Below, one piece after another: positions 1 through 64,000 of a DNA stretch of 64,000 nt. The first letter of the stretch is position 1. Each line of letters starts with the position of its first letter. The translations under genes and the position numbers were made by a program. This DNA comes from Microthyrium microscopicum (taxonomy: Eukaryota). The DNA lies in the NCBI GenBank assembly GCA_010405405.1, contig MU004230.1, forward strand, positions 34,627 to 98,626. Reading direction: 5' to 3'. The notes beneath the pieces were generated by a model. That model was not told the origin of the DNA. It did no database searches and worked only from the letters and a program-made list of their open reading frames with translations.

Positions 1-904
1 TAATATATATTTATACTTTAGTAATATTATTATAATAGTACGTATTAAGATTCTTTCTACTTATTATAGCTCTATAATAGTATCTATATATATTAAATAG
101 TAGTCCTTAATAGAAATTATATATATTTTGTTTTATTTTTTAGTCTTTCTAAGTAGTTCTTAATTTATACTTTTATAAAAGACTACTTTACTCTTTTTTT
201 ATCTTTATATTTATAAAAGTACTTCCTTATTTACTTAACTCTATTATACTAGAAACTAAATAATATTATTATACTAATATTTATAATAATATATTTCTTT
301 ATACTTAAATAGTATATTTATTATATAACTAAAAGCTTCTTATTTAGATAGTTTACTAAAAATATTTATAATAAAGGCTAGTAGAGTTTTTATAGAGCTT
401 TTTATAAATAGAATTCTATATTAGATTTATAATCTATTATTAGTATACTTTATATATATATAGTAGGTTTATAGTTAATACTTTAGATTCTATTTATTAT
501 ATAATTAGACTTATAATTACCTTCCTATCTTTTATATCTATTTCCTTAAAATCTAAAGGCTAAGAATTAAGTTTTAGATAATAAACTTAGTAAATAAACT
601 CTAAATTATTACTCTAAGAATATTCTAGGATACTAGACTTATTATAACTATATAAAGCTTATATCTTTTTATTTTAGCTACTAAACTTAACTAGATATAT
701 AAGTAGATTCTATTTTATTATTATATAAAGCTTATATTTACTTAGTATATATTATATACTATCTACTTTAATAGTTTACTATTTTATAATTTTTAAGCTA
801 ATAGATTCTTTATATTCTACTAAATTAGATATCTATACTATATAAAATACCTTTTATAATCTATTTCTACTCTTTATATATAAATTTACTTTTTTTTATA
901 ATAA
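1..904. mobile_element. RIP-degraded repeat DNA (host of the Gypsy insertion), left part; family not identifiable
   Basis: Very AT-rich, TpA-rich and CpA/TpG-poor, with no ORFs. Ends exactly at the TSD of the LTR element. Confidence 0.55.
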
Positions 905-909
905 CTTAA

Positions 910-1177
910 TATTAGGAACTAGGACACCTCTAGTTTAAGACAACTACTAATAGGACACGTTTACGTAGGATAAAGCGTTATTAGTTAGGTTAACTAATAA
1001 TAACTTATTATAAATATAGATAGCTTAGCAGAGTCCTTATAGCTCTAGATAATAAAGAAGAGAGATTATAAGGGTCTAAGTAACTTCCTAATAATTACTC
1101 TCATTTTCATTTTTATATATTTACTTAAACCATAATAATTATAGTCTTTACCTACTTAGAACGATCCGTTTCTAATA
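910..1177 (+). repeat. 5' LTR (268 bp)
   Basis: tattaggaact...tctaata (TGTTAG...CTAACA termini after RIP). Aligns without gaps to 9420-9687. Confidence 0.92.
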
Positions 1178-3199
1178 TAGTAATTACTTCTCAACCCTTA
1201 AGTACCTAAAGAAATTATTTTTATCTTTTATTTAATTAGAAACTATATCTAACAGTAGATATTTAGACCTTAACGTCTAAATAAGACTTAGATAGCCTTA
1301 ACTATTAAGCTAAGAATTACTAGTACCTATTCTACCCTAAATTAATATATTTAAAAGTCTATTAGACCTATCTAATATTAAATTAGCCAACCCTAACCTA
1401 CCTAGGCCTAGGGAGACCTAAAATAACTTTATAACGCGCTATAAAAAGGAACTTAACGCGCTTATTAATAAAAAGAAGCTAGAGCTTAAAGTATAAGAGC
1501 TAATAGTAAAAACTAGAGCAATTTAGTTTAGCAAGCTTAAAACTACTTAAGAGTTAAAGAACTTTAGCTAAGTTAATATAATAAGACCCAATTAGCATCT
1601 TTTAAGCTAAGCTCTTACTCTTTTAGGATTATTAAATTAGGATAGGCCTAAGATAGAGCCTTATAAGAAGAAGAGTTTCTAGGAATATATATCTTAAGTT
1701 AATAATATTAAATAGAAATTTATTAAATTCTTTTATTAAGAGAGCACCTATAACTAGTAACTCTACTAGTATATTTATAAATATAATTAGCTTAAGAAAG
1801 GGCTATTATAAATAGGATTAGATAATCTTATTCTTTATAAAAAGTCTTAGGACTTAGGATTCTAAAAGATATAGTAAATAGTCTAAGATTATACGCTAAG
1901 CTATCTAGGCTACTTTATAAAGTAAGAATATATTACTTTTAAAAAGTTCTAAATAGTTAAATTAGGTTAATACTACCCTTAGAAACTCTATAATAACCTC
2001 CTTAAGTTATAAAAGAAATAGAGATATAACGACTAGAAGAGCTACCTCTTTTAGTTCTATAAAAGCCTTTTTAAGAATATATAGAAAAAGATTCTCTTTA
2101 ATAAGAAGTTTACTACCTCTATAGTTAAAAAGGCTCTTAAAAAAGCTAACTTATATTAGACTTTTAGTTCTATAAAGGCTAAGGCTTATTCTACTCTTAA
2201 AAAAATAAACCTAGGATAACTTTTTCTAAAATAATGCTTATACTTCTTAGAAGATAAGTATAAGTATAAAAAGGGCTTAAAAGAGTTAAGAATACTTAGA
2301 AAGTTCTTCTATCCTTTAAAAGATAGTAAGGTAGAATAGGCTATACTTAAAATAACTTAAAATGTAGATATTTTACTAGAGTCTAACTTAAAAAAAATTA
2401 AATACTTTAAATATAATAAACTCTACTTTAAAATAGAATACCCTAAGCTATAAAAAAAAGATAAAGCTATAAAGTTATAGACTAGAACTTAGTAGCCTTT
2501 CTTATTAATAAGATAGCCTAGCTTAGTACTAAATAGCTCTATAAGACTATTATTATATACGTCCTAGAGATATTAAAGGCTAAGAATAATAACTTACCTA
2601 GTAAGGTAGACTTTATAAGACTAAAGTTAAAGCAAATATACTTATAAGAAAGTCTAAAAAATAATAAGAGCTAGGAAGCCTTATCCTTAGATATTATAGT
2701 TAATTATAAATTATACTTTAACGTTATAAATATTAAGCTAGCTAAAAGACTTTAGCTTTATATTACTCCTCTTCTTAAAATACTTATAATATACTTAAAT
2801 AATACTTCTATATAAATTTATAAAGTTATAGAAGCTATAGTAATAGTAGTTAACTTAAATAGCCTTCTTAAAATTAAAATAGAGTTATTTTATATTATAG
2901 ACTCCTTATATTACCTTATTATTATAAGAATACTCTAGTTAGAGAAATAGAATCCTCTTCTAAACTTTAAAAATAAGACTCTTACGTAGAAGTAACCTTT
3001 TAGTAGCTTCTATAGTAAGATAGAGATTATAAATACTAATAAGTTTTCTAAGTTAGCTTAGGATAGTTTATCCTAACTATTTAATTATTTAGTTAGGTTA
3101 CTAGATCTAAATTTATTTATAGAAGAGCTTCTAAGTAAGTATTTATAGTTTATTAAAGCCTTTAATAAATAAGATATACTTAAACTAGTTTAATATAGT

Positions 3200-6100
3200 C
3201 TATAAAACCTTAAGATTAACTTAGAGCTAAGCGCTATAATATTATATAGACTTATTTATAGCCTCTTAAAAGCTAAGTTAGTTATTTTACATAAATACTT
3301 AGATACTTATTTTATAAGAGATTAGATTTAGAAGTTAAGATCTTCTACTAAAGCTCTTATCCTCTTTATAAAGAAGAAAGATAAGATATTATAACTTTAT
3401 ATAGACTATTAAAGCTTAAATAATATTATTATTAAAGATTAATATATATTACTTCTTATTAAGAAGTTTTTAAATAAACTTTAAGGCGCTAAGTTCTTTA
3501 CTAGCCTTAACTTATATAAAGCTTACTATTATTTACGTATTAAAGACAATAATAAGTAGAAGACTACATTTAAGACTAAATATAAGATATTTAAGTATAT
3601 AGTAGTCTTATTTAGACTTATAAATACTCTTACGGCCTTCTAAGTATATATTAACTAAGCATTAAGAGGCTTAGTAGACGTAATATATATCATTTACCTT
3701 AATAATATCTTTATTTACTTTAAAACTAAGAAATAATATATTAAAGACGTCTAAAAAGTTCTATAGTAACTTATAAAGTATTATTTATACGTAAAACTAT
3801 TTAAGTATAAGTTTTATATTAGTAGTATAGAGTATTTAAGTTATATTATAACCTTAAATAGTACTACTATAAATTAGTTATAGGTTAATACGTACTTAGA
3901 TTAGCTAAAACTATATAATATATACTAAGTAAAGAAATTTATTAGCTTTATAAACTACTATTATTAGTTTATTACTAGATTCTCCTATATTACTATATTA
4001 CTAAACGCCTTAACTTAGAAAGAATTAAGTTAGGCCTTAAAAGGCCTAAAGCTATAATAAAAAGAGTTTATAAATATTAAATTACTACTAGATACCTTAG
4101 ATTCTTTTAATAAACTAAAAGATTTTTTTATAAACGCGCTAATTTTAGCCTATTTTAACCTTATGCTTTCTATACAATTAGAAATTAATACCTTTAGAAG
4201 AGTAATTTATAAAATATTAAGCTAAAAATAGCACAATAAAGACTAGGATAGCCTATAGAAACCTATTATATTCTATTCTTAGAAATTATCTCTACTAGAG
4301 AGCTACTATAGGACTCTATAATAGAAATTCTTAATAATTATAGATTCCTTAAAAGTATTTAGAAAGTACTTATAAGGCTTACTAGACTAATTCTAGGTCT
4401 TAATAGACTATATAAACCTTAAATTACTTAAAATAATATTAAAAATATTATTAATATACGCAAAGTAGGCAAATTTACTCTTAGAATATAATTTTAATAT
4501 TAAGCATCACTTAAGTAAGATAAATTTAGCTAATAGACCTTTAAGACACTTAAACTACGTTAAAGAGAGCTAAAAAGAATAGAAAAAGACTATAAAAGCG
4601 TTACTTAACTTACTTTATAATAAGTTATAGCTTAACAACGCTTCTATAGCTAAAACTAACACTATTAGACTTATAAACTTTATTATTATATACATTAGTA
4701 TTAATATATAATATCTTACTATAAATTAACTTAAGAAGAGTTAAGATAAGCCTACTAAGACTTAGAAGTATTTAAAAATAAGTTTTAATAAGATTTTAGC
4801 TATTAACGAACCCTCTCTAACTAAGAATAACTTAGATAAAGCTAAATAGATAAGTAGAAATCTCATTTTTATTAAGAAAGAGTTACAAAAAAAGAAAATC
4901 CTATAAAGGTTCTATAATAATGCTATAGAAGGCAATTATAAGAGGTTAAAGAAGATACTTAAAAAGATTAAGCACTACTATATTTAGGACTACGTCTAGA
5001 AAGACGTTAAGAACTATTATAAAGCTTACCTTAATTACTAATATAATAAATCTATTAAATAAGCCTAGAAAGAGTTATTAATAGCCTTACTAGTTCTAGA
5101 AGCGCTATAAGAAGATATTATTATAAATTTTATTATAGATTTACTTCTAAGTATCTATAATAGTTAAACCTATAACTCTATTATAGTAGTTATTAATAAA
5201 TTAACTAAAATAGCCTACTATGTTTTAATAAAAAAGAATATAGACGCAAAAGACTTTACTAAGATTTTTTTATAGAAGATTATATACTTATATAGCGTAC
5301 CTTATACTATTATATCTAATTAAGAACCTCTCTTTATTTCTAAGTATTAGAAAACATTTCTTTATTACCTTTCTATTCTTAAAAAGTTCTTAATAGTATT
5401 CTATCTATAGACTAACGATTAAATAAAGTACTTAAACTAGGAGGTTAAGTACTACTTATAGATTTATAAGTATTAGGAATAGGACAATTAGGTAAGATAG
5501 CTTAGTTTAGCTAAGTTTAATTATAATAATAGTATTTACTTATTAACTAAAGTTACTTCTTTTATTATATATATTAGAAAGAACCCCTATGTTCCTAAAT
5601 TAGCTAAAACGCTATTAAAAAGTATTATACCTAACATTAAAGAGATAGTAAACTATATCTTATCTTTATAACATATAATAAGGGACAAATTAGCTAAAGT
5701 ATAGCTATACTAAGCTAACTAGTATAATAAAAAGAAGAGAAACGTTTATTTAAATATTAGTAACTAAGTTTTGCTTAATATAAAGAATATTTAGACTACT
5801 TATATTAAGAAGAAGCTTAATATTAAGTATATAAATTCTTTTAAAATTATAGAGATTATAAACACTAATACTTACTAGCTTAACTTTCTAAAGAATATAT
5901 AAGTTTATAATATATTCTATATCTCTTTATTAAAGCTATATAAGCTAAACCCTTACTTTTTATAGAAGTCTATATTACTATAGGATTCTTTAAACTTAGA
6001 AGACTTAGATATATATAATATAAAGAAGGTAATAAAGTATATAGTAGATAAAAAAAGTAAATACTACTACCTTATAAAATAGAAAGGTTACCTAAATTCT

Positions 6101-6200
6101 AAATTAACCTAAGAGCTTATAGCTAACTTTTCTTTAACTACTTTAAAGCGTTATTACGTAAAGTTAGCTAAGAAGAGTATTATACTAGTAATAAATATAA
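3200..6200 (+). pseudogene. RIP-destroyed pol (RT, RNase H, integrase, chromodomain); boundaries approximate
   Basis: Motifs become recognisable after reversing C>T/G>A changes. Many TAA/TAG stops replace Gln/Trp codons. Confidence 0.88.
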
Positions 6201-9200
6201 TTAGAAAAGTAGTTAAATACAAAATAATATATTTAAATAATATTATAGATAGGTTAATAGATCTTAACTCTATAAAACTAAAAAGATAGCTAAAAAAGCT
6301 AAAGAAGACTTAAAAGACTTAAAATAAGCTTTTAAAGAAGAAGAATAGTTACTTTATAATTTTCTTACTAATTAAAACCTAAATTAATCTCTTTATATAT
6401 ATATTATAATAAATTAACTTAAAGTAACTTAAAAATAGTACTAAATAATAAGTATATAAAAAAACTACTAAGTTATAAATATATAAAATAACCTAGAATA
6501 ATATATAAAATAAGTCTTTATATATATATAAGGAGTACTCCTTTAAGAACCCTTTATAACGTAAAATAGGGTTAAAATATATATTAGAAAATATATAAAA
6601 GAATAAGTAATTTCTAACTAAGAGTCAAATTAGCTATATAATAGTTTTATAAGGATATCTATTAACGAACTTATTCTTAGGAAATCTTAGAAGAGTATCT
6701 ACTAACTAACTTATCCTTAAGAGACGTAAAATAACTTAATATAATAAGAAATAGCCTTACTTAGCTAATTAAGGCTAAATATAGATAATACTAAATTCTA
6801 AAAGACTTAAGATAACCTATCTAACCTTATTTTAACTTAAGAAGAAGCTACCTAGCTTATCTTATACTTTTTTATAGTAGAACTTATAGCCTTAACCTTA
6901 GAATAGTCCTTATTAGTATAACTATCCTTATAGAAGGCCTTAATAGCCTTTTTAATATAAGCTTTAATCTCTTAGTGCTTAGAAGCGCTAAAATAAGCCT
7001 TATAGCGCTTAAAAAGCGCTTAAGAGTTTGTAAGGACGCTACTTAGATTATTCTTAGTATTAGTAAGTTATTATAAGATAGTTAGACGTAAAGTAACCTA
7101 TTATAAATATAAAAAGACTTATCTAAGATAAGTTAGGTCTTTAAGGACTAATAATATAGTAGAAGTTTTAATACTAAGAATATAGTATATTATAGTACTT
7201 AAAGCGCTTAGAAGGATAGAATTAGATATTAGTAACTAAGAAAGTTAGATAAGTTATAATATGCTTCTTTAATTCTAAAAGGCTATTATTTACTAGCTTT
7301 TAGGTAGCTTTAGTATCTATATAGTAGTTAATAAGCGTATAGGTTATATAGAAGTTACTCTTAGTAATACTAGAGTATAATAAAAAGAAATTAGCTATTA
7401 GCTACTTAGATATATAACTATAAACTAATTAGCGTCTAAATATATAAAACTAGACTAGAATTAGTTAAAATAAGTACTTATGACTTATAAAGAATTATTA
7501 TATACTTATAAGCGTATTAAATACTATTATAAAGTATATACTTATCCTTATAAAATAATTTATCCTAAGAACTATTCTTAAGAGCATAAATAACCTTATT
7601 AATTATAATATAGACTAAGATAAGCTTAGCCTTATTATAAAGGTCTTAATAAGGAACAACTTACTTATATTAGTATAATATAATATAAAATAAGCTAGAA
7701 TAGGATATTACTTCTAGATAATCCTTAGTTAACTTTATATTAAAGTATTTAATGAAGTACTTACTTAAACTAACTTACTAAGCATAATAATAGTCTAAGT
7801 TAGGAATAAGATAAAGTTTAGTAGTTAAAGAAGAAGAGAAATACATAGTATAGACTTTTATATAACACTAATAAGGATTTAAGATTAAGTAGTATTATAA
7901 TAAGCTAAGTAAAGCTATAATATTCTTATTAGCGTATTCTTACTTTATTTTATTTTTAAAGACTACTTTAGTAAGGTCTATAATATTAGTAGTTAAGATT
8001 TAGTTATTATAGGACGTAATAATATTATTATTAGTAAGAATAGTTACTATAGTTTTACTAAAGTTAAAGTTACCTTTAGTAAGAACTTAAGAGCTTTTAA
8101 TAGAATCTTTAAGTAACTTATTTATATTAACGCCTACTTTAAACAAAAATAGGTTTAAAAGTATATAAGTTAGTTAAAATAAGTTATTAAAGGTTAAAAG
8201 AATATAAAGTATACTAAAATAAGTTAAAAAAACCTAAAGAAGCGTTAAGTAGCTTAATAACTAAGAAGAGAAAATTTATAATTATTAGAGAAAGACCTAT
8301 AACGCAAAATAGGTTAGTAATAGTAATTTTTATATATATTTACAAAATTATAGAATTTCTACTTATCTTAAAATTTAAAGTATAAAGAATAAGAAATAGA
8401 GAATTTAGAGTAAAAAGGGTTATTTTATACCTAAATCTTTCTACTTTTCTAAAATAGCTAAGTATTAACATAATAGTACTTAGTAAAGACTTATAAGAGC
8501 TTTTTATAAAAAAAGGAAGTTATATATAGTATAGTAAGTACTTAGAAAGGTTATAACTTTCTAAATAAAAAAGTATAATTTTAGCCTTAGAGTCTTTAAA
8601 CTTTTAAGTAAGGATTTAAATACCTTACTATAAATAACGTAAACTAATTCTTAATTAGACATAAAAAGCATTAAGATATATATATAAAAAGTACCTCTTT
8701 AAAAACTCTTTTTAATATAAAATAGAGTTAAAATACGCCTTTAATCTAAAACTAAATAAGGCTTATAAAGTAGTTTTATATATAAGTTATAGTTACTTAA
8801 CCTACTATAAAGCTAATTATACTAAACTAATATAAATTTAGTATATCTAACATAGTATAACTAATTAAGTTAAGCTATATATATTTTAATAACTAGATAA
8901 CTTATACTATATATAGAATAACTATTTAGTAGTATTTTAATAAAATCTAATTAAATATAAATAGTAGCACTATACTATGCTTATAGATAGGTTAATTTAG
9001 CTCTAATAAAGCTAGTATTAACTAATTAAGACTTTAATAGAGCTATTAACTACTTATTAGATGTCTTACTAATATATTAGACTTTAATAACTAGACTTCT
9101 TTAAGTCTAAGTTAATATAGTTAATTATAGCCTAAAACTAGTAGAAAATAGAGAGCTATTTATTTAGAGTAGGTAAAAAATAGAGAGCTATCTATCTTAA

Positions 9201-9419
9201 ATAAGTAATATACTAAAGCTAGAGAATAAGAATATTACTAGGCTATAGAAGACTTCCTAAAGTATAAGTAACCTAATCCTATACGTTTAGTTAAGCCTTA
9301 TTTTCTCCTAAGTCTTAGTATAATAGAGTGTAGTTAAAAGCTATATATAAGCATAAGAAATATCTATTAGAACCTTTAAATATACTCTTTAGGACAAATA
9401 GCCTTAAGAAGAGAGATAA

Positions 9420-9687
9420 TATTAAGAACTAGAATACTTCTAGTTTAAGATAACTATTAATAAAACACGTCTACGTAGAATAAAGCGTTATTAGTTAGAT
9501 TAACTAATAATAACCTATTATAAATATAGATAGCTTAGTAGAGTCTTTATAGCTTTAAGTAATAAAGAAGAGGAATTACAAGAATCTAAGTAACTCTCTA
9601 GTAATTACTCTCGTCCCCATTTTTATATATCTACTTAAACCGTAATAATTATAGTCTTTACCTACTTAGAATGATCCGTTTCTAACA
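9420..9687 (+). repeat. 3' LTR (268 bp), preceded by a polypurine tract
   Basis: tattaagaact...tctaaca. Purine run aagaagagagataa lies immediately upstream and TSD cttaa follows. Confidence 0.92.
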
Positions 9688-9692
9688 CTTAA

Positions 9693-10015
9693 GTTTAATA
9701 AATAGTTTATTATTAGTAAGTTAATACTATATAAGTAGTAGAATAGTAATATATATTAAGAGTATACTAAAAATATATATAAATAGTTATCTTTATATTT
9801 ATTAGCTTAACTATCTATATATAGCCTTTTTATCTAATTAATAAAGAATATATACTAAGAGAGTATAAAATATATTACTAGTTTAAGTATTTTCTAGAAT
9901 TTATTTTTCTTAGTATAATGTATTTTTTTAAGCTAGTTACTTTAGCTTTCTTAAATTATCTAAATTACCTAAACTATAAGCTAGCTAAATTAGCTAATAG
10001 TTTTTATTCTACGTA
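9693..10015. mobile_element. RIP-degraded repeat DNA, right part; end of the AT-rich block
   Basis: Same TpA-rich composition as 1-904. Abrupt shift to balanced base composition at ~10,015-10,100. Confidence 0.5.
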
Positions 10016-53738: not shown

Positions 53739-55240
53739 AAGTCTTCTGACTATTGTAAGTTTGAGTAAACCGTATAACAATCAAAACTTGTAGTCAATAT
53801 ATTTGCTGATTTAGAATAAGAAGTACTTTTAAACCAGCTCGAAACATCATGCTAGTTTTGCGAACTAGATAAACTATATTTCCTAGTTAGCTAGCTACCA
53901 TTAGAGATCTCATCGATCTGTAGCGAGACTTTCTCCACCACACTATCCTATCTTTAGGTCGCCTGGGACCAAATCTCGGATGACAGTCGTACGATGGATT
54001 GTCCGAAGCATCCCTTCAGAGTGAACAACTTCCAATCTGGCTAATTTGAGAAGTCAAACTAAACGAGCCAACTTATTGTCGTCATCATACTATTCTTTTA
54101 TCGAAAATAGATCACAGATATCTATTTCACGATCTACATCTATTGAATCCATATCTTCCCGGAGCTAACTTCTTAACGAGTGAGCCAGTCATGGCACGCA
54201 AGGCGAAAGATGTCTTGAAAGGTCGCGATAACAATGATTACACGTAGATGCAGATCGAGAAATTCTAGTAGATTATGTTAGTAGAATTTGATAAATTCAT
54301 AAGTTGGTGATTAGTATAAGTTCTTCCTTCTGAAGGATCCATTGCTGCAGCGAATGCGTCTGCTAAGCCTCATCCAGGTACTAAAAGTCTAGAATTTCCC
54401 ATTTTTTAATTTTCCGGGCCAATGAGATTGTACATGAGAAACATTCCAGCCAGATTGTCCGATACTTCGGACTTGTCTCCATCTTGATATGTTGAAGTGT
54501 TTACGCGCCCAACAATCGGGTCCTGTTGGTTTAGAGCTGTATGCATCAGCTTATTGGACCATTTTTCAATGTACACCGCGATAGAAATGTTAGTCCAACC
54601 TGCTACATTAGTAACCTCTTTTAGGAAATTGCTGAGCCACCCAACATGTATGCCTGGATCCAACAAATGTCCGCGAACACGATGCGCAGCTCGTCTCACG
54701 CGCTAGTTCTTGAATGCGAGCTTACTTGTATAGCACCACGGAGATTTCCAGGCTGCATCTTCTCCGCTGGATTATCAAGCTATCACGATAACGGCTTGCG
54801 TTGCTTTTGGCCGTGTTCTATTTCAAATTATGGTGCCAACACGATAGGCCCAACTCCAGGACACTTCGCCACTGAAATCCGGTAAAGTATTCCGGTAATA
54901 CCGTAAGCTGGAGGAGGAATTGAATTGAGTTGCTGCGAGAAGCACGACTATCCGCTTCAGTAGTTTGGTATCTAATGCGAAGGTGTTCATATCTCCAAAA
55001 ACACCTAGATCCATTCTCGTCCCAGAGGTGCTCCTTGGGTTACTTGGCCAAGCTATATTAGGTCCTGTCTCAAGAATTCCAAGATCACTTTTATGTACTT
55101 GGCCGTTGGCCGTTGATTTGATCAATAGTGATCATGCAAGAAGATTATGAGCCAAGTTTGATGGGCACCAGTTCATAAATGATGCCTTGTCAGCTTTCAA
55201 TCATGATATCTTTTCAATAATTTCCAGCGGTATACGTTCA

Positions 55241-56969
55241 ATGATGTCTTCTACTACTAGCTTTGACTCGAGTGCTGACGAGTCCAACACCCCAGAGCCA
55301 GATTTCTTACACTACTCTTCTTCTAGTCCTATTGATACCAGAAGACACTGTTCTGTCTTTTCAGAGCCAAAATCTGCTTGCTATTCTCCTTCTATTACAG
55401 TCAATTCCAGAAGACATGGTTCCGTGTTTTCAGAGCCAACTTCCACTTGCTACTCTGCCACTGATATCGAAAGTTATATCAAAAGATCTCAACCGGTAGA
55501 CAATGGCCTGGGCTCTCGATTCTCATTCTCGCTAGATGTGCAAGTTGAAAGCGAGAAGGACCAAATATCGAAAGACATAGAACAGGCCCCAAATGTCTCC
55601 ATCAAAAGAATTGCAGTAAGCCATATTTGGTATTTTGCTTTGGATGGTGTTAACATGTCTATAGAAGCCTATGGAAGGCCTGTCCCGAATCAATCAGAAG
55701 TTCAGCCCATACAAGAAACTTTTTTCAATCGTCTTACTCGGGAACCTAATTGGCATGACAATCTTCCTCAACAGAAACCGGGACAACGTACCTCTCTCCA
55801 CCATTATAACGGCATCTTCCTCGAACATTCTGGTCGCAATACTTGTTCGCCAAGAGTACCTTGTAAATTCAGTCTACAGACTTTGCTGGTATACACCGCA
55901 CTCTTGGCCACTATGGGCCCGGATCCTGATCACCAAAGTCTACGAGCATGGTGGTATACATTCTGGCGCAGCAGTTGCTGGTACCATATGGCTTCTCCTA
56001 TTGGTCGTCCTGGTCATTCAGGACTTCGTCCAGAAGAGCTATCGATCCGTTCCTGTTTTGACTGTCTGCTTGATTCTTCTCCTATTGCTCACCGGTATCT
56101 TGTTATCTTCCATACCCACCTTTCGATCGAAAAGACACAACGCCTTCGAACGCACCCATCGGTTCGCTGGATGGACAGCGACAGCCATGTTCTGGATAGC
56201 AATCTTTGTCTTCGCTCATGATTCTGCGATATCCGAAACTCGGCACTACCGAGACGTCTTGATTCACACTCCTTCTTTCTGGATACTACTTCTGATCACA
56301 ATCTACCTGGTTCTTCCCTGGCTTCGCCTTCGAAAACAAGCTTTCACAGCATATATGCTATCCGATCGCTCAATAAGACTTGACTTCGAAGCAAAATATC
56401 CACCAGTTGCTGGCATCGGCATCTCAGAGTCCCCACTAATGGAGTGGCATCCATTCGCAACCTTCCCCAATCCCACCGGTGGAAAAGACTGTCATAGCAT
56501 CATAATATCTCACACTGGCGACTGGACTCGCCGAATCATTGACAATCCAAAACCTCAATACTGGCTCAAGGGAATCCCAAAGATTGGTCTGCTATCTCTA
56601 GCCTTGGTATATCGCTCTGTTCTCTTGGTGACGACCGGGTCAGGGATAGGGCCATGTTTGTCATTGCTCATGACAGATTCTCCCAGACGGAGTAATACGA
56701 AATGCAGACTGGTATGGTCAACACCTAATCCAGTCCTGACGTATGGCTCTGATCTGTATCATTCGGTTCTACGAGCTGACCCAGAAGCGACGATCATTGA
56801 TACAAAGCTCAGTGGACGACCGGACTTGGTGGATATTGCGTTTACTGAGTGGAGTTCTTCTGATATCGAAGCGGTCTTTGTGATCAGCAATAAGGAGGTG
56901 ACTAGAATGATTGTGGATGAGTTGAATGGGAAAGGCGTTCCAGCGTTTGGTCCTATCTGGGATTCTTAG
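55241..56969 (+). CDS. TmpA-like membrane flavoprotein (TM domain plus FAD/NAD(P)-binding FNR domain)
   Basis: GGIHSGAA, HNAFERTHRFAGW, EWHPFA, GDWT, VTTGSGIGPCL, VFVISN, FGPIWDS; intron 55616-55664. Confidence 0.82.
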
Positions 56970-57747
56970 AATTTGGCATGTATTCTCCTGCTATAGGTAA
57001 TGATGTAGGTTGTTAATCCACGGACAAAATAACTGGCGTGCCTCCATCAGTTGCGCTGGCTCCCACGAGCGCTACTAAATGGAAGGGCCCTCTATTTACC
57101 ATTGCATTCATTAAACTATTTGAGTTTGGACGCCCTATATAGAGGCAAAGCACTTGATAGCAAAGCGAATGGTGTGGGAGCCATCGAAGTCGATGGTAGC
57201 GCCCCGATTATTTTGTCGATTGGTTGGTTGGCCAAAGCACGTTGTACTTTCGAAGTGAGGTAAAATTGTGAATAACATAACGCTAGTCCTGAATCCTACA
57301 ATGGAGAATATGGATTGTTCTTCAGCCCCTGATAGAGAGATTAGCAGAAGCTTCGAGCCTGGCACATATCCTTTCAAAACATAAGTGAGATTGCTAGATC
57401 TACATGTCGCAAGAGACATCATTGGCATGAGTGACTCAAACAAAGTATCGTCGTAATTATCCTTGCAAAAGGCCGCATTTTGTGTATGCCAATTCCAAAT
57501 TAAACTGTATCCAAAAAAAGCAGGACGTCTGAAGTGGAGTTATAACACAAAGCAAGAACTGAAGCAAAAGTCGTTCAAACACAAAGCACGGGATATCTTC
57601 CAAAATAAAGCAAGCAAGGAACGAATTGTTTGAACAATGATTAGACCGAGTTGTATGATCGCTATTTAGACAGTTGAAAGCAAAAAACGCCGTAGTATGC
57701 AAGTTTCCATGCATCAATGCAAACGCCAAAGCAAAAGACTACCGAAA

Positions 57748-58400
57748 CTACCGATTCTCCGGAGGGTCTGTGAAAACGCTGAGACGAACTCGATGGGTCT
57801 AGAGAGCGTTAGAAGTGAGTGGTGCTGAAAGATGTCTTGGACTTACAGCTGGTAGCTTTGGAATGACAACTGCAACAGTTGCTAGCAGATTTATCAAGAA
57901 GTAGTAGATACCATAATGAGTGTAATGGGTACTGATGAGGAATAGAATGATTGGAACAGAAAGAAGGTATTTTTTGGCTGGTGTGTATTGATCGCCATTG
58001 TCGATTTGTTCCCACATGTTGAGATTGTCAAAGGCCCCGGCATTGAAATCGAATGGAATACCGCGAACCCAATGGAACATGATATAAGATCCCGTCATAT
58101 ATGTTATATTGGTCAGGGTCCAGGAGAGTTCCTGGGTTATACCTGGCCATATATCGAAGAAGAGTTTGAGTGCAACGATGAGGAAAGGGTGGATTAGCCA
58201 GGCTCCTATAGTTGAACAATTGTGTCAGTCAAATGCTCCTCGATTTTTGGTTCGCCAGATGAGAACTTACCCTTTGCATTGACCCATTCAGCATTCAAGT
58301 TTGGCAGCGCAGCCTGGTCGCTCTTATGTTCCAAGGTCTCGGGCGGCTCGACGAAGACAAGACTACTAGACCGTCTCCTACGTTTGGTTTCGGTAGTCAT
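57748..58400 (-). CDS. ORM1: ORM1/ORMDL sphingolipid regulator
   Basis: RRRRSSS, DQAALPNLNAEWVNAKG|AW, FHWVRGIPF, WEQID, VVIPKLP; two introns. Confidence 0.92.
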
Positions 58401-59281
58401 GGCTTCTAAGGTGGATGGTTTTCGAACGGGATTCGTGTCTCCGTGAAAGGAGACGGTTCTCGTCCGGTTCAGAATGATGGGCGACAGTTTGGCGATTGTG
58501 TGGATGGATGGGAGTAAGGATGTATAGACGACCGTGACAGTGCAAGGCCGGGAAGATATGCGCAAAGGTTCAAAGTGATGCCTTTGGTGGAATTGCCGAC
58601 TGGGAAAAGTGACGTGTGTGATTCGCGAGACACGTACGGCACTGGACTTTGTCGATATGTAGGCTGCGATAGCGAACCGGGAAGAAGCGGCAGAGCGGGG
58701 GCAAAAAATGAAGTGATTTGGATGCCGCAAAGGAGATGGCAGATGATGGATGGGAAGTTGTTTAGTTTAGGCAGCAAGAAGTTGCAGAATAGTTTGAAAT
58801 GGCGGCGGAGAGTTGTGATCGCGAAGGTTGTAGTGGACCTGTGGTAGATCTTGGCTTGGGGATGCAGGTGTGGAATCTAGGCACTGCGATTGCCAGGAGA
58901 GTGAGGTCTAGGGTTATTTATCCATCATATGCATGGCGTGGGCCTTGGCTGCACCTTCCACCTCCTGTCAAATGCGCCTGGTCTTGCTGTGCATCTCCCA
59001 AGACACTTTGAGCCTCCTTCAACCAACTTCATACACCTCGCTTTGGCTATCCGCAAAACCACCACCCTAATTAATCAACAATCAACATAATCGCGACCCC
59101 GAATTCATCAACTGTCATCAAAACTTTGTCGTGTTTTATTTGTTTCCATTATCCCAATCTCATCGAGCGCGAAATACCATCTCCAAAGTCCTCGCCGTGG
59201 ATGCGACACGTCGCGCTTTAAACCACTTCGACCAACTTCGACCTCATCACCGTCCACTACATACACAATTAAATCATCAAA

Positions 59282-60211
59282 ATGACACCCGAACCTGCTA
59301 CACAAACCGCAGTACCTGAGGTATCGCAAGACGAGAATGGCGAAGACTCGAAACCACAACTTCCTACAAGATCATGGCGCAAGAAGTATCGCAAGCTACG
59401 GCAACGATTCGCGCGCGTCATGAACGAAAGCAATAACTACACCAAAGACGAGCATCGAGCATTAGCATTGGCGCGGCGATTACAAGAAGAAAACGACCAA
59501 TTACTTGAAATGCTCATGGACATCCACCGATCAGGCAGTCTAGACATTCCAGTTGACGAAGTCGGTCTCGACCTGCCCTCGGACATTGCTAGTCTCACCA
59601 CGGCGGCCACAATAGAGTCCGAAGAGAGCTACTTATCTAGCATTCTCCAAATGCCACACAAAACATATGAGATGAGCGATGTGCCCGAGTCTCTCAAAGT
59701 ACTTACATCATCCAACTACATGGATGCCACATACCGCGACGAATATATAGCCAACCTCGATTCTCAATTAGAAGACATAACCTTCCTAGCCGACCCCAAC
59801 AAAACGCTGCGTCCACCAGATAGTCGTACTGTGCCCTCCGAAAAAGATTTGCAGAACAAGAACGTCGATAGTGTCATCAGCTGGCTGCGGCGTCATCATC
59901 CCGAAACATTCATCCAGGACAAGGATGAGAAAGAAAAGCCAGAGCCTCGGAAGCGAGGAGGCGGCGGTAAACGCGCAAGCCTTGCTCAATCCACTACTAC
60001 AGTTCCTAAGCAAGAGCCGGAGGAAGAGGAAGAGATGGGTGTTGCTCCAGATCCACCAGAGAAGCCTACTGGCCGAGCGAAAAAGACAAAGGAAGATGAG
60101 GCGTATCGCCCCAAGGGAGGTAGCTCTCGGAGTGCCAAGCGCAAACGACTGACTGAGGACGGAGATCACAAGCCCGCTGGTCGAGGCAAACGAGCAAAGG
60201 CAGCTGCTTAA
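59282..60211 (+). CDS. iec3: INO80 complex subunit Iec3-like
   Basis: SWRKKYRKLR..F..VM.ES coiled coil; NVDSVISWLRRHHP; basic tail YRPKGGSSR. Confidence 0.75.
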   Translation: MTPEPATQTAVPEVSQDENGEDSKPQLPTRSWRKKYRKLRQRFARVMNESNNYTKDEHRALALARRLQEENDQLLEMLMDIHRSGSLDIPVDEVGLDLPSDIASLTTAATIESEESYLSSILQMPHKTYEMSDVPESLKVLTSSNYMDATYRDEYIANLDSQLEDITFLADPNKTLRPPDSRTVPSEKDLQNKNVDSVISWLRRHHPETFIQDKDEKEKPEPRKRGGGGKRASLAQSTTTVPKQEPEEEEEMGVAPDPPEKPTGRAKKTKEDEAYRPKGGSSRSAKRKRLTEDGDHKPAGRGKRAKAAA

Positions 60212-60619
60212 AGGGGGGCTGCATATACTCGCTAGGCGATAGGATAGTAATGCATTATTATGCTGATTGTTCTGCTACTCATGAATCTGAATGACATGCC
60301 TGGTGTCAAGATGGCGAGCCTTTACAATAGAAATGTCTTTCAACATCTCTGTACACCATGTTCCACGCTTTGCTACCGAGCGTTCTATTTGCCAGAGAAG
60401 GTGTACAATTCTAACTTTTCATCGAATCCGATCAATATTAAATCCGTCTTGCTTCAAGAAGTGCTATGGCAGACATCGTGTTTCATGGAGGAGTCAGTCA
60501 TATGAAATATTGTATACTATCGACCCGGAACTTTCCCATGAGCAGCCACATTATTTACAGGATTGTTGCTGCGAATCTTCCATTCTTTGCTTTGAGTGTT
60601 CTCACCCACAAGTTAAATC

Positions 60620-61405
60620 TCACAGGTGTGATTCTTGTGATAGATTAACGTAAGGAAAGGTGTTGTCGTACAATTTCACATAGTACTTGAGGAAGTCGTT
60701 TAGTGAAAATACTTCCTTCTTGTCCATTTCATCAATCTTGTCTCTTCCGCACCCGGCAAAGACTTCATTGCTCGACTTCGCGGCCTCACAAAGATCTTGA
60801 CATATTGCCCAATCGGTCCAGGGGTAAGATTTACCAATGTACCTTCTGGATTGTCGAGCAAACTTTTGCCAATCGACCAGCCATTCCCGAATACTCTGGG
60901 TGGGGAATGGGCCTTTCTTCAGGCGCTCCAGCTCATCCCGTAAATCTTCCTCAACAGCGCCGTCGCAGTCTTGATTCCATTCGCGCAGTTCTCTGAGCAT
61001 GGTTCGACAATCTTTGGTGTCGTAGATGCCCTCTTGAAAATGTTTGTGAATCGAATGGGTGATGAGCTGATAGACTTGGTTCAAAATATCGCGGACTGTA
61101 ATGAATTCATTGAGCCTCGCCTTGTAGAGTAGCACTGCGTCTTTCAGATTTGGATGGTCATCAGACGGTATGTTGGGTAACTTTGGCGGAACAGGCGTAT
61201 CTGCGTCCGGGTCGATGTATTCCCAGACGCCTAGAATTGATGCATGCCGTTTGATATGATCGAACCAGAGATCCCAGTCTGCCCGTTTCTCCAAAAAGTA
61301 GCCTGTTTTGGCTAGGGTGTGGGAAGACGGAGGTATAATTGGATCATCTGTATCGAGGTCCATTCCAGGCACTAAGGTCATTGGGGAATGAGGTGGTGAA
61401 GCCAT
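60620..61405 (-). CDS. Solo Ty1/Copia-type Gag-like protein (261 aa), possibly domesticated
   Basis: LEKRADWDLWFDHIKRHASILGVWEYIDP...I..SI...MLRELR...L..LKKGP...IREWLVDW resembles fungal Copia gag. Intact ORF; no pol or LTRs seen. Confidence 0.65.
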   Translation of the reverse strand: MASPPHSPMTLVPGMDLDTDDPIIPPSSHTLAKTGYFLEKRADWDLWFDHIKRHASILGVWEYIDPDADTPVPPKLPNIPSDDHPNLKDAVLLYKARLNEFITVRDILNQVYQLITHSIHKHFQEGIYDTKDCRTMLRELREWNQDCDGAVEEDLRDELERLKKGPFPTQSIREWLVDWQKFARQSRRYIGKSYPWTDWAICQDLCEAAKSSNEVFAGCGRDKIDEMDKKEVFSLNDFLKYYVKLYDNTFPYVNLSQESHL

Positions 61406-62067
61406 GTTGACTGCCGCAGTGTTCCTACCTGTCAGAAGACTCGATACTGACAGAAGATTTGGTGATCAAAAGAACAATTGGTAGTTGAGAGAGGAGTTGT
61501 TTAGCGAGTGCTCCGAAAAGTCGTAGTTGGTATTCATGAGCGCTGACTTTTTGAGCGAGCGAGAGGTGAAGTTGAGGTTGCATCCACCCGAATCGGTCTG
61601 GATATGAGAGGCGGGGTCTGATACCTAGGTGTTTGAGGTCTGCTGGTGCGTAAAGTCCATTGGGAAAGAACGAAGGTCATGGGCCATGGCTATCGCTATT
61701 GCCTTGTCAGGCAGGAGCGATCATGACTATCGAACAATATGTTCCACTCGAGCGCAATATCTACGATGTATTGCCCTCCAGCGACTGCTCTATATTCAAA
61801 TAGATCCGTAAGTCAATGAGCACTAATTGGGTGTGCTGGAAATTGAAGTCTAGTCTTCTCCTCGAGTGCGATGGTACGCATTGAACATCGAGAGTTTCGA
61901 GACTACTTCGTCTGGTGGTTGCGACCCATAAGGCTGAGCTTTGACCATAAATAAGTCCAAGCTCAGCCCCACTAGCGGCAACAACTCTTGATCTCCAACT
62001 TTTTTCTTCCACCGAATTCAGTGAACTCACAACGCAAATTTGGTCTACCAAAGACACTTCGACAATC

Positions 62068-62898
62068 ATGGCCACCTCGAATAAGCGAAAGCGATCTAGC
62101 AAGACCGAAGAAAATGCGACTACTAGCCCGACCACAATACCTGTCCGCAGTCGCAAAATAAAATTCGGAAGCGAGTCACCTGAACCACAAGACACAGATG
62201 CCAAAAAAGAGCCTACAACAGCTCTCCCAGTACACAGCCGGTCAGCAGAACAAGAAGAAGATCCATCCGACGATGATGATGCTCCGGAAGCGATCTCCCT
62301 AGCCACAGGACAGGCTCAAGCGCGAGAGCTTGACGCTGGTGCTGCAAAAGCGACCAAGCAGGCAAAGGAAGATGCCAAGCGGAAGAGAAGGAAGCGGGAC
62401 GAACAACTGAAGGAACAGTCGAAGAAACGGAAGCCTGCGAAGGTCGCCAAAGAACAAGACGAGGATAGTGAGTCAGACAAAGAAGAGGAGGAAGGTTCTG
62501 ATGCGACCAGTGATGGAGAACTTAATGCGAGATATCTACCCGCGGAGTTGCTCGATGCCATACCGGATGTGAGACCGCCAACTCCCGAGCTGGACGAGAA
62601 ACGACCGACCAAACGATCAAAGAAGAGCAAGCTGTTTTCATACAATAAGAAAGGGATTATCAAATTTGCTTCTGAGGCAGAGCCAAAGGACCTGAAAGTC
62701 GGTTCAATCAGCGTGAGCGTACTGAAGAAACAAAATGCGCTGCTACCACCAAACTCGGGGTCAAATACTGCACACATCAAGCAGACTTGGCTCAAAGGCA
62801 GAGCCACTCTCCCGGTTAGCCAGAAGCAAGCGAAGATTAGGAAAATCAAGTCGGGTAGAACTGTGCGCAGACCATTTGGGCGGGCAGCATTTACTTGA
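62068..62898 (+). CDS. U3 snoRNA-associated nucleolar protein (Utp16/Bud21-like)
   Basis: KIKF.SE, DDDDAPEAISL, KRRKRDEQLKEQ, YLPAELL; K/E-rich low complexity. Confidence 0.6.
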   Translation: MATSNKRKRSSKTEENATTSPTTIPVRSRKIKFGSESPEPQDTDAKKEPTTALPVHSRSAEQEEDPSDDDDAPEAISLATGQAQARELDAGAAKATKQAKEDAKRKRRKRDEQLKEQSKKRKPAKVAKEQDEDSESDKEEEEGSDATSDGELNARYLPAELLDAIPDVRPPTPELDEKRPTKRSKKSKLFSYNKKGIIKFASEAEPKDLKVGSISVSVLKKQNALLPPNSGSNTAHIKQTWLKGRATLPVSQKQAKIRKIKSGRTVRRPFGRAAFT

Positions 62899-63277
62899 TT
62901 CGATTAAAAAGTAGAACATGTCAATGATACCCATTAAATAATGAGCGACCTTGATGAACTGCAATGTCATGCCAGAGCTAATATTGTACTATCAATTATT
63001 ATAGTACAAGAGGAATTTTTCCTCCTTAATGCTTTTGTCTAGAAATCAAAACGCCGAGACCATGCAAAGTTGAGCCTTCCAAACGCCTAGCAGTGATCCT
63101 AACTCCAGGAAAGAGAAATTTTGCACTGTCAAGAACTCTCCTGTGGTTGGAGTGTCAATTCTTCTTGGACGCTTGAGACCGCAATAATTCTTGAGACCGC
63201 AAGTAGGCTGCTTTGTGCACGGGACAAATCCCTTTCAAATGCTCGCCAGATGGACATATACAACTTCCGCGATCACT

Positions 63278-63902
63278 CTATGCCGCATTCTGGTTGACTG
63301 CCGTGAAGCCTGCACTATAGGACTCGGCAGGAGTGTCTTCCATTGGAACGTCCTCTTCAAGAGCATTTAGATCCTCCGTGCTGTTAACATAAGCCTCCTT
63401 CGGTGTCGTCGATTGTTGACCAGCAGCTATAAACCCCATTAGCAAAACCATCCCACATTTACCAATCGCACCAAAACCTACCAAGACCACTAGCAGCCGG
63501 GCTAGTCATCAACGCACTCGGCCCATCCGTCGGCGGCGTGCCCCCCTTCGTCTTGCGCTTCAAGCGCGTCGGCTTCTCCTGCGGCTGTTGCAAGTCGTCA
63601 GCACCACCTTGACTACCACCACCAGGCAATCCGCGTTGGGGCGTGGAGCGTACCGTAGGCGGCGGACTATCACTCTTGTCTGAGAGGGCAGATTTGCCTG
63701 CGACGCCGCGCTTGACCATGTCGATGAGGAGGGCGCGCTCGAGGCGCAGTTTTTGCACGTCGCGATTCACGCGCTCGAGGTTGGAGCGGCGCTTGTCGTT
63801 GTTGTGCTCGATTTCGTCGATGCGGCGCTTTATTTCGATGGATTTCTTGTAGTAGGCGCCTTCGATGGAGGGGGGGAGGTTGGAGTTGGAGACGCCGCGC
63901 AT
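63278..63902 (-). CDS. INO80 subunit F / Nhp10 N-terminal-like coiled-coil protein with no visible HMG box
   Basis: LPPSIEGAYYKKSIEIKRRIDEIE..ND...KLRLERALL, SDSPPPT|PQEKP; introns 63585-63653 and 63427-63481 join to the GFTAVN-ending exon. Confidence 0.7.
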
Positions 63903-64000
63903 TACGCGCTCTGGGAGATGTTAGTGGTGAGCGGAGTTGGAGGAAGCGAGTACAGTAGTACCATTGTCTTTGGTTTGAGGCATCGTGATGAACGGAGTTA

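Follow-up and report, generated by a model that had tools for sequence, protein, structure and literature searches.

The gene at positions 60620-61405 of the window (the whole 64,000-nucleotide stretch of Microthyrium microscopicum contig MU004230.1 that was analyzed) is predicted to encode the whole two-domain capsid protein (CA) of a fungal Ty1/Copia Gag, without the nucleocapsid, and this Copia-derived gene has very probably been kept under selection for a long time as a gene of the host. The capsid gene, its parts and its surroundings are as follows.

60620..61405, minus strand: capsid-only gene derived from Ty1/Copia gag; single exon, 261 aa, pI 5.2, net charge -12
61316..61405, minus strand: N-terminal extension, residues 1-30; Pro/Asp-rich, modelled with low confidence (pLDDT 54-64), with further Met residues at 9 and 15
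60968..61315, minus strand: predicted CA N-terminal domain (NTD), residues 31-146; helices within 41-145, aligned to Copia CA 8vvw, with conserved columns
60647..60967, minus strand: predicted CA C-terminal domain (CTD), residues 147-253; matches Drt2 CA-CTD 9rxy and PEG10 CTD 7lga
60620..60646, minus strand: tail, residues 254-261 plus stop codon; replaces nucleocapsid and zinc knuckle in the polyprotein alignment
61406..61828, minus strand: probable 5' leader of up to 423 nt; bounded by the end of an RNA-run contig at 61828, without LTR-like repeat
60212..60619, no strand: intergenic gap; 408 nt separate the stop codons of iec3 and the capsid gene, which converge here
59282..60211, plus strand: iec3 (INO80 subunit), convergent neighbor; PF14612 E 2e-20, PF24244 E 4e-16
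62068..62898, plus strand: gene for a U3 snoRNA-associated protein, divergent neighbor; PF08297 E 3e-13

The reading frame starts with ATG at 61405, and its stop codon ends at 60620. The Copia Gag motif reported in the initial annotation is present as LEKRADWDLWFDHIKRHASILGVWEYIDP (residues 38-66), and the NTD carries the pattern L-x4-DW-x2-W-x7-A-x5-W-x-Y-x-DP followed by a Pro-rich loop. A location between iec3-like and Utp16-like genes, also reported there, agrees with the families found on either side (PF14612/PF24244 and PF08297, the last of which is presumably Utp16). The absence of a CCHC knuckle, protease and pol was likewise borne out: a CCHC pattern scan of the protein was empty, the frame stops at the end of CA, eight residues beyond the stretch aligned with Copia CA, and the 408-nt gap before iec3 leaves no room for pol. 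Long direct repeats, which LTRs would form, were found neither in window 54000-64000 nor at the loci of the paralogs. The RIP composite index of the frame (-0.81) is gene-like, as had been claimed, beside -0.50 and -0.72 for the neighbors and a strongly RIP-like +1.62 for window 1-10000 (GC 0.22). No LTRs, pol or near-identical dispersed copies, as an LTR element that is active or non-autonomous would show, were found for the capsid gene.

The leader contains six upstream ATGs, and a 52-codon frame that begins at one of them closes 20 nt short of the main start; the true start may be closer, or translation may be damped. A PBS-like sequence in the leader, GGTATCAGA, adjoins no LTR and was dismissed as a chance match. 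The last three residues of the protein are SHL (window 60623-60631, minus strand), and peroxisomal signals follow the pattern [SAC][KRH][LM]; the pattern fits 1 of 97 family sequences, and SHL is missing from the paralogs, given which it may be due to chance.

The Copia Gag origin proposed in the initial annotation is supported by homology to polyproteins. An exhaustive homolog search with the capsid protein gave 95 matches at E<=0.001, none with identity over its length much above 33%; a word-indexed search returned only the protein itself. The matches include five long polyproteins with RVT_2, at or near the N-termini of which the capsid protein aligns; P0029, P0068 and P0082 have the Copia order Pol_BBD, rve, RVT_2 (protease-like, integrase, reverse transcriptase), and P0005 was matched with E 9e-10. 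In this alignment the capsid protein stops where the Gags continue into zinc knuckle and protease. A knuckle-like motif occurs in 29 of the 42 matches of at least 285 aa; the capsid gene has none, and so its product is not a complete Gag, which would include a nucleocapsid with zinc knuckle. Identity to the Gags among the matches reaches at most about 33% in the NTD and 25% in the CTD, and 22 of 25 family-conserved columns are retained, a count that leans high as the alignment was seeded with the capsid protein. A Pfam scan of the frame found no family at E<=1, a profile search of solved structures found the Copia VLP protein alone (E 0.21), and in the Gag lineage of the capsid gene 2 of the 63 members overlap Retrotran_gag_2, with scores under its cut-off.

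The fold points the same way. An AlphaFold2 model built from 63 sequences (pLDDT 86) most resembles the capsid of Drosophila Copia, 8vvw (Z 10.8, rmsd 6.1, 184 of 184 residues aligned to model residues 31-253); for a helical protein such a Z is modest, but the ranking of folds agrees with the sequence evidence. Next come another Copia capsid (8s41, Z 9.9) and then Drt2 CA-CTD, Arc, PEG10 and PNMA2, the top nine rows all being retroelement capsids, in agreement with the helical capsid-like region described in the initial annotation. The CTD of the model aligns with Drt2 CA-CTD 9rxy (Z 8.9, rmsd 3.1, 90 residues) and with PEG10 CTD 7lga (Z 8.1, rmsd 2.8, 85 residues). Foldseek also ranked 8vvw first, but with E 0.39, and a viral fold library gave no match at E<=0.001. 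A Copia capsid as best fold, together with the stop before the knuckle, implies that NTD and CTD are both present as a whole CA from which the nucleocapsid is missing.

The capsid gene has three relatives in the genome at the protein level: a tandem pair on contig C2, flanked by CoaE and a NUDIX_2 gene (L007 5447-6390 and 7431-8358), and one gene on contig C10 with Pex3 and a WD40 gene nearby. The initial annotation had called the gene single-copy, which holds for the DNA (the 1856 nt that separate the flanking genes match nowhere in the genome but at their own locus) but not for the protein, which belongs to a three-gene clade and has a fourth, separate relative. The clade of the capsid gene and the C2 pair has SH-aLRT 98 in a 75-row tree and support of 97.4/91 in a realigned 30-row tree, both inferred with LG models, the former leaving out 23 of 98 sequences with short cover. 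In both C2 genes a GT..AG intron, of 128 nt in one and 175 nt in the other, is predicted to split one and the same codon in phase 2, with donor GTACGT or GTATGT and GCTAAC 15 nt before a TAG acceptor; these introns were picked by their splice signals from 43 frame-keeping candidates and are predictions only. When the predicted intron is taken out, the junction matches the capsid gene without a gap, and in the element Gags of this lineage one frame runs straight through the intron site. The public gene models of the pair differ, one using another acceptor and one being left unspliced; the second C2 gene, if unspliced, yields the annotated 110-aa product with part of the NTD. The pair lacks a RIP signature (-1.03 and -0.84) though it is a duplication in a RIP-active genome.

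A tandem pair with a common intron must have diverged as genes. The two C2 genes share 37% amino-acid identity, with identities at the three codon positions of 0.56/0.63/0.36, pS 0.75 (saturated) and dN 0.61; the capsid gene is 28% identical to each of them. Among all three paralogs dN is 0.61-0.90 and synonymous sites are saturated, and the frames are open; in a neutral simulation an open frame survived in one or two of 2000 runs at 0.25 substitutions per site and in none of 2000 at 0.5. Signs of purifying selection, a criterion for co-option in PMC8321522, are thus present among the paralogs, to which they are confined. The divergence of this pair, with its predicted shared intron, is the strongest evidence for selection and covers the capsid gene indirectly, through the clade; part of the divergence between the capsid gene and the pair could predate capture. 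The co-option proposed in the initial annotation gains its support from this clade, with its saturated pS and open frames. The C10 gene (L010 4668-5429, minus strand) is a capsid-only, single-exon gene of 253 aa with a basic pI of 10.2 that lies outside the clade, unplaced, and is possibly a separate capture; its single-sequence fold has pLDDT 39 and was set aside.

One public run, not registered as RNA, covers the capsid locus, and it is a run of RNA, as its contigs skip canonical introns in neighbor genes. A jointless contig (59086-61828) spans iec3 and the capsid gene, no joint falls within the capsid frame, and the next contig starts at 62039. The contigs have gaps at both divergent promoters, and the next convergent gene pair is merged likewise; the contig across the capsid gene, from a single run of one study, is unstranded and joins the gene to iec3, and the cover fits a minus-strand transcript of the capsid gene. 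Expression, another criterion of PMC8321522, is seen for the gene in this one unstranded run with spliced neighbors. Elsewhere in the window (57023-57217) a 44-nt inverted repeat lies where ferric-reductase-like and ORMDL transcripts would meet, and a contig of the run skips across it.

These results bear on whether the gene is a functionless, recently truncated transposon fragment, spared by RIP as a single copy, with the C2 and C10 genes as separate fragments. Many knuckle-less matches of 200-280 aa may be just such fragments, and neither an ortholog nor synteny was found; the capsid gene, however, has no LTR, flanking element DNA or close element in the genome, ends cleanly at the CA boundary, is covered by RNA, and groups with two clearly constrained genes that share an intron, all of which makes such a fragment quite improbable.

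The retroelements of the genome were compared with the capsid gene in searches whose repeat counts are lower bounds. That this genome destroys its retroelements by RIP, as the initial annotation stated, is true of most of them: 14 of 16 RVT_2 matches contain stops, and the other two lie in identical open Copia frames of 1869 aa. These two frames are RIP-free and on short contigs (C25 and C26, the former with a 95-nt terminal direct repeat), RIP-hit relatives of theirs are found on larger contigs, and the element is, from its sequence, possibly still active. Its Gag has no sequence similarity to the capsid gene (best E 2.0), and descent from it was rejected, the Gags being unrelated at the sequence level. 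When the genome was searched with a cognate polyprotein, 33 matches came up, of which 30 contain stops; of 18 stretches examined, 14 belong to one Copia family of about 7.3 kb with 269-nt LTRs and copies about 90% alike, and in two copies compared 671 of 696 substitutions are transitions. Nine stretches match the Gag profile (best E 3e-16), and sequence comparison thus indicates that this genome once harbored a Copia family of the capsid gene's Gag group, which RIP has destroyed. Recent descent of the capsid gene from that family was rejected, since purine/pyrimidine identity between them is only 0.59-0.67, compared to 0.96-1.00 within the family.

Outside this genome no ortholog of the capsid gene was found, and no match of the homolog search joins its clade, though the related collection includes Venturia, Tothia and Trichodelitschia proteins. 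Among 36 metagenome loci of iec3, none has a gag match or a U3-associated gene, all being distant (best segments mostly below 55%); the divergent ORMDL-iec3 pair (window 57448-60211) is kept in 8 of the 36, the downstream side varies, and in the 12 loci inspected it consists of other genes or has no long frame. As all of these loci are distant, they neither show an empty site nor exclude orthologs in sister genera. A metagenome scan with the capsid protein gave 61 candidates, none confirmed, and a homolog search for the U3-associated neighbor gave no match. Of the checks on copies and synteny set by the initial annotation, the former found no near-identical copies within elements, and the latter found no syntenic ortholog among these distant loci. 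The family seems, from the sequences searched, to be lineage-restricted. A 220-aa capsid-only protein of Eremomyces bilateralis (P0012) has an FAxCGR motif in common with the capsid protein but was rejected as an ortholog because it groups with the element-like Gag P0040 of its own species (96/96); it is a parallel and probably younger capture. Other knuckle-less members of the Gag group (P0011, P0018, P0034, P0039, P0056) come from Penicillium, Aspergillus, Emergomyces and Emmonsiellopsis records, and P0011 apparently has two copies of the N-terminal motif.

The known genes most similar in kind are Crtg12 and Crtg13, which, according to PMC8321522, are likewise solo Copia gags of Dothideomycetes, without pol or LTR, expressed and constrained. 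They differ in being single-copy genes of Pleosporales/Mytilinidiales with a Retrotran_gag_2 domain and with AbiEii, or PTZ00376 and ACPS, as neighbors, whereas the capsid gene has no Pfam match, other neighbors, and paralogs with an intron; it is set apart as non-orthologous by host range, flanking genes and domain call rather than by direct alignment. Microthyrium appears once in the part of the supplement of PMC8321522 that was available, in the genome list, and the corresponding part of PMC10799480 mentions a PEX14 fusion only. The literature searched, which comprised neither subscription papers nor bioRxiv supplements, contained no report of the capsid gene or its family. Arc, dArc, PEG10, PNMA2 and MOAP1 are also domesticated capsid folds, but of Ty3/Gypsy origin and in animals (PMC10516033).

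Drt2 and p22/p18 of Saccharomyces are, like the capsid gene, derived from Ty1/Copia gag, and Drt2 is an endogenized fragment with a similar CTD (Z 8.9; 9rxy; PMC13709905). The initial annotation suggested a dominant-negative mechanism like that of p22, with which the retention of both CA domains and the distance of every Gag found disagree. According to PMC13709905, p22 and Drt2 act through the CA CTD and are highly subfamily-specific, Drt2m being 91.5% identical to its target; the capsid gene has NTD and CTD and no close target, let alone a near-identical one. A strict lattice poison of this type would have to act on a close Copia element absent from the assembly and the databases. The source strain of Drt2 likewise lacks full-length target elements (PMC13709905), repeat searches of the genome give lower bounds only, and the superfamily and the CTD fold are those of Drt2; against this, the NTD is retained, no Gag among the matches exceeds the identities given above, and the genome's own cognate family is far removed from it, which leaves a strict poison very improbable.

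The Drosophila Copia capsid (8vvw, 8s41) offers a further comparison, since model residues 31-253 align with Copia CA residues 3-186, the stretch of a construct described in PMC11835246, although the two are 11% identical and there an element is concerned and here a natural host gene. In that account, Copia Gag cut at the end of CA forms no particles by itself but is taken up into those of wild-type Gag, and the capsid protein covers the same stretch as this non-self-assembling construct. Self-assembly without RNA into a capsid-like particle, serving as compartment or carrier, as dArc1 can (PMC11835246), would be in keeping with two CA domains that are whole and confidently modelled; it is made improbable by the failure of Copia CA to assemble alone without nucleocapsid, by the missing knuckle and acidic net charge, and by paralog CTDs that are 20-27% identical, though similar Gag pairs average 26%.

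Any functional role is inferred from the fold, truncation, family, constraint and RNA cover described above. By analogy, the capsid protein may be a restriction factor that binds retroelement Gag lattices, a preferred but tentative reading that becomes slightly less tentative if the identity of the gene is granted. The history behind that identity is very probable and largely borne out by the sequences: the capsid-coding portion of a Copia-type retrotransposon stayed behind in a forebear of M. microscopicum; LTRs, knuckle and pol were lost and the capsid gene kept; and the gene was copied to a second contig, where an intron came to set the copy apart and the copy was duplicated in tandem. Since a Copia Gag cut after CA joins wild-type particles, there is a possible route by which an acidic CA was captured: at an early stage, without RNA binding, it would have joined the particles of its parent element, bringing no RNA and diluting them. 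The net charges of the three paralogs are -12 to -20. Now highly diverged, the protein would recognize capsids unlike itself in the manner of Fv1, with the paralogs covering different targets. Fv1 of mice likewise comes from gag, serves the host, lacks LTRs and pol and is remote from the nearest element; only 43% identical to MERV-L, it restricts distant retroviruses, and it differs in its retroviral MERV-L origin and in its demonstrated restriction and positive selection (PMC3948346). Defense is favored by the 14 loci of the RIP-hit Copia family, which shows that elements of this Gag group did inhabit the genome; against it stand a CTD with at most 25% identity to library matches, the distance of the RIP-hit family, the dissimilar Gag of the intact Copia and the near-identity to their target that known yeast factors of this origin require, and RIP alone suffices to explain the dead cognate family.

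Long survival after divergence implies either Fv1-like recognition or a new cellular role. In the latter case the CA fold would now serve host partners as an interaction or scaffold protein unrelated to transposon control, as suggested by saturated divergence from every Gag found, by a core kept constant (the 22 of 25 columns, a count leaning high) and by the varied host roles of co-opted gags in PMC8321522 and PMC10516033. Such a role is possible but somewhat unlikely, given that no host domain has been added, that no ortholog is detectable in related orders represented in the library by their Iec3 proteins, and that the paralogs diverge fast (28-37% identity).

Whether the restriction reading is right is easily tested, because the capsid protein is a natural counterpart of the laboratory Copia construct that co-assembles and cannot initiate assembly. 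More broadly, filamentous ascomycetes might repeatedly capture capsid-only genes of this Pfam-invisible Copia lineage as Fv1-like sensors beside RIP and RNA silencing, a rather unlikely generalization that would embrace the three-gene family, the separate C10 gene and the parallel Eremomyces case. Because the Gag lineage has nearly no Pfam signal, it would escape surveys that rely on domains; among 2,011 eukaryote genomes surveyed in PMC8321522, only three fungal gag co-options were reported, all single-copy. Co-option of Copia gag is already known in Dothideomycetes (Crtg12, Crtg13) and in yeast (Drt2), with function demonstrated in yeast only, according to the cited papers, and until a function is demonstrated the capsid gene is one more instance of a known process. 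As such it would be a further independent co-option of gag in fungi, to which it adds duplication and an intron difference.
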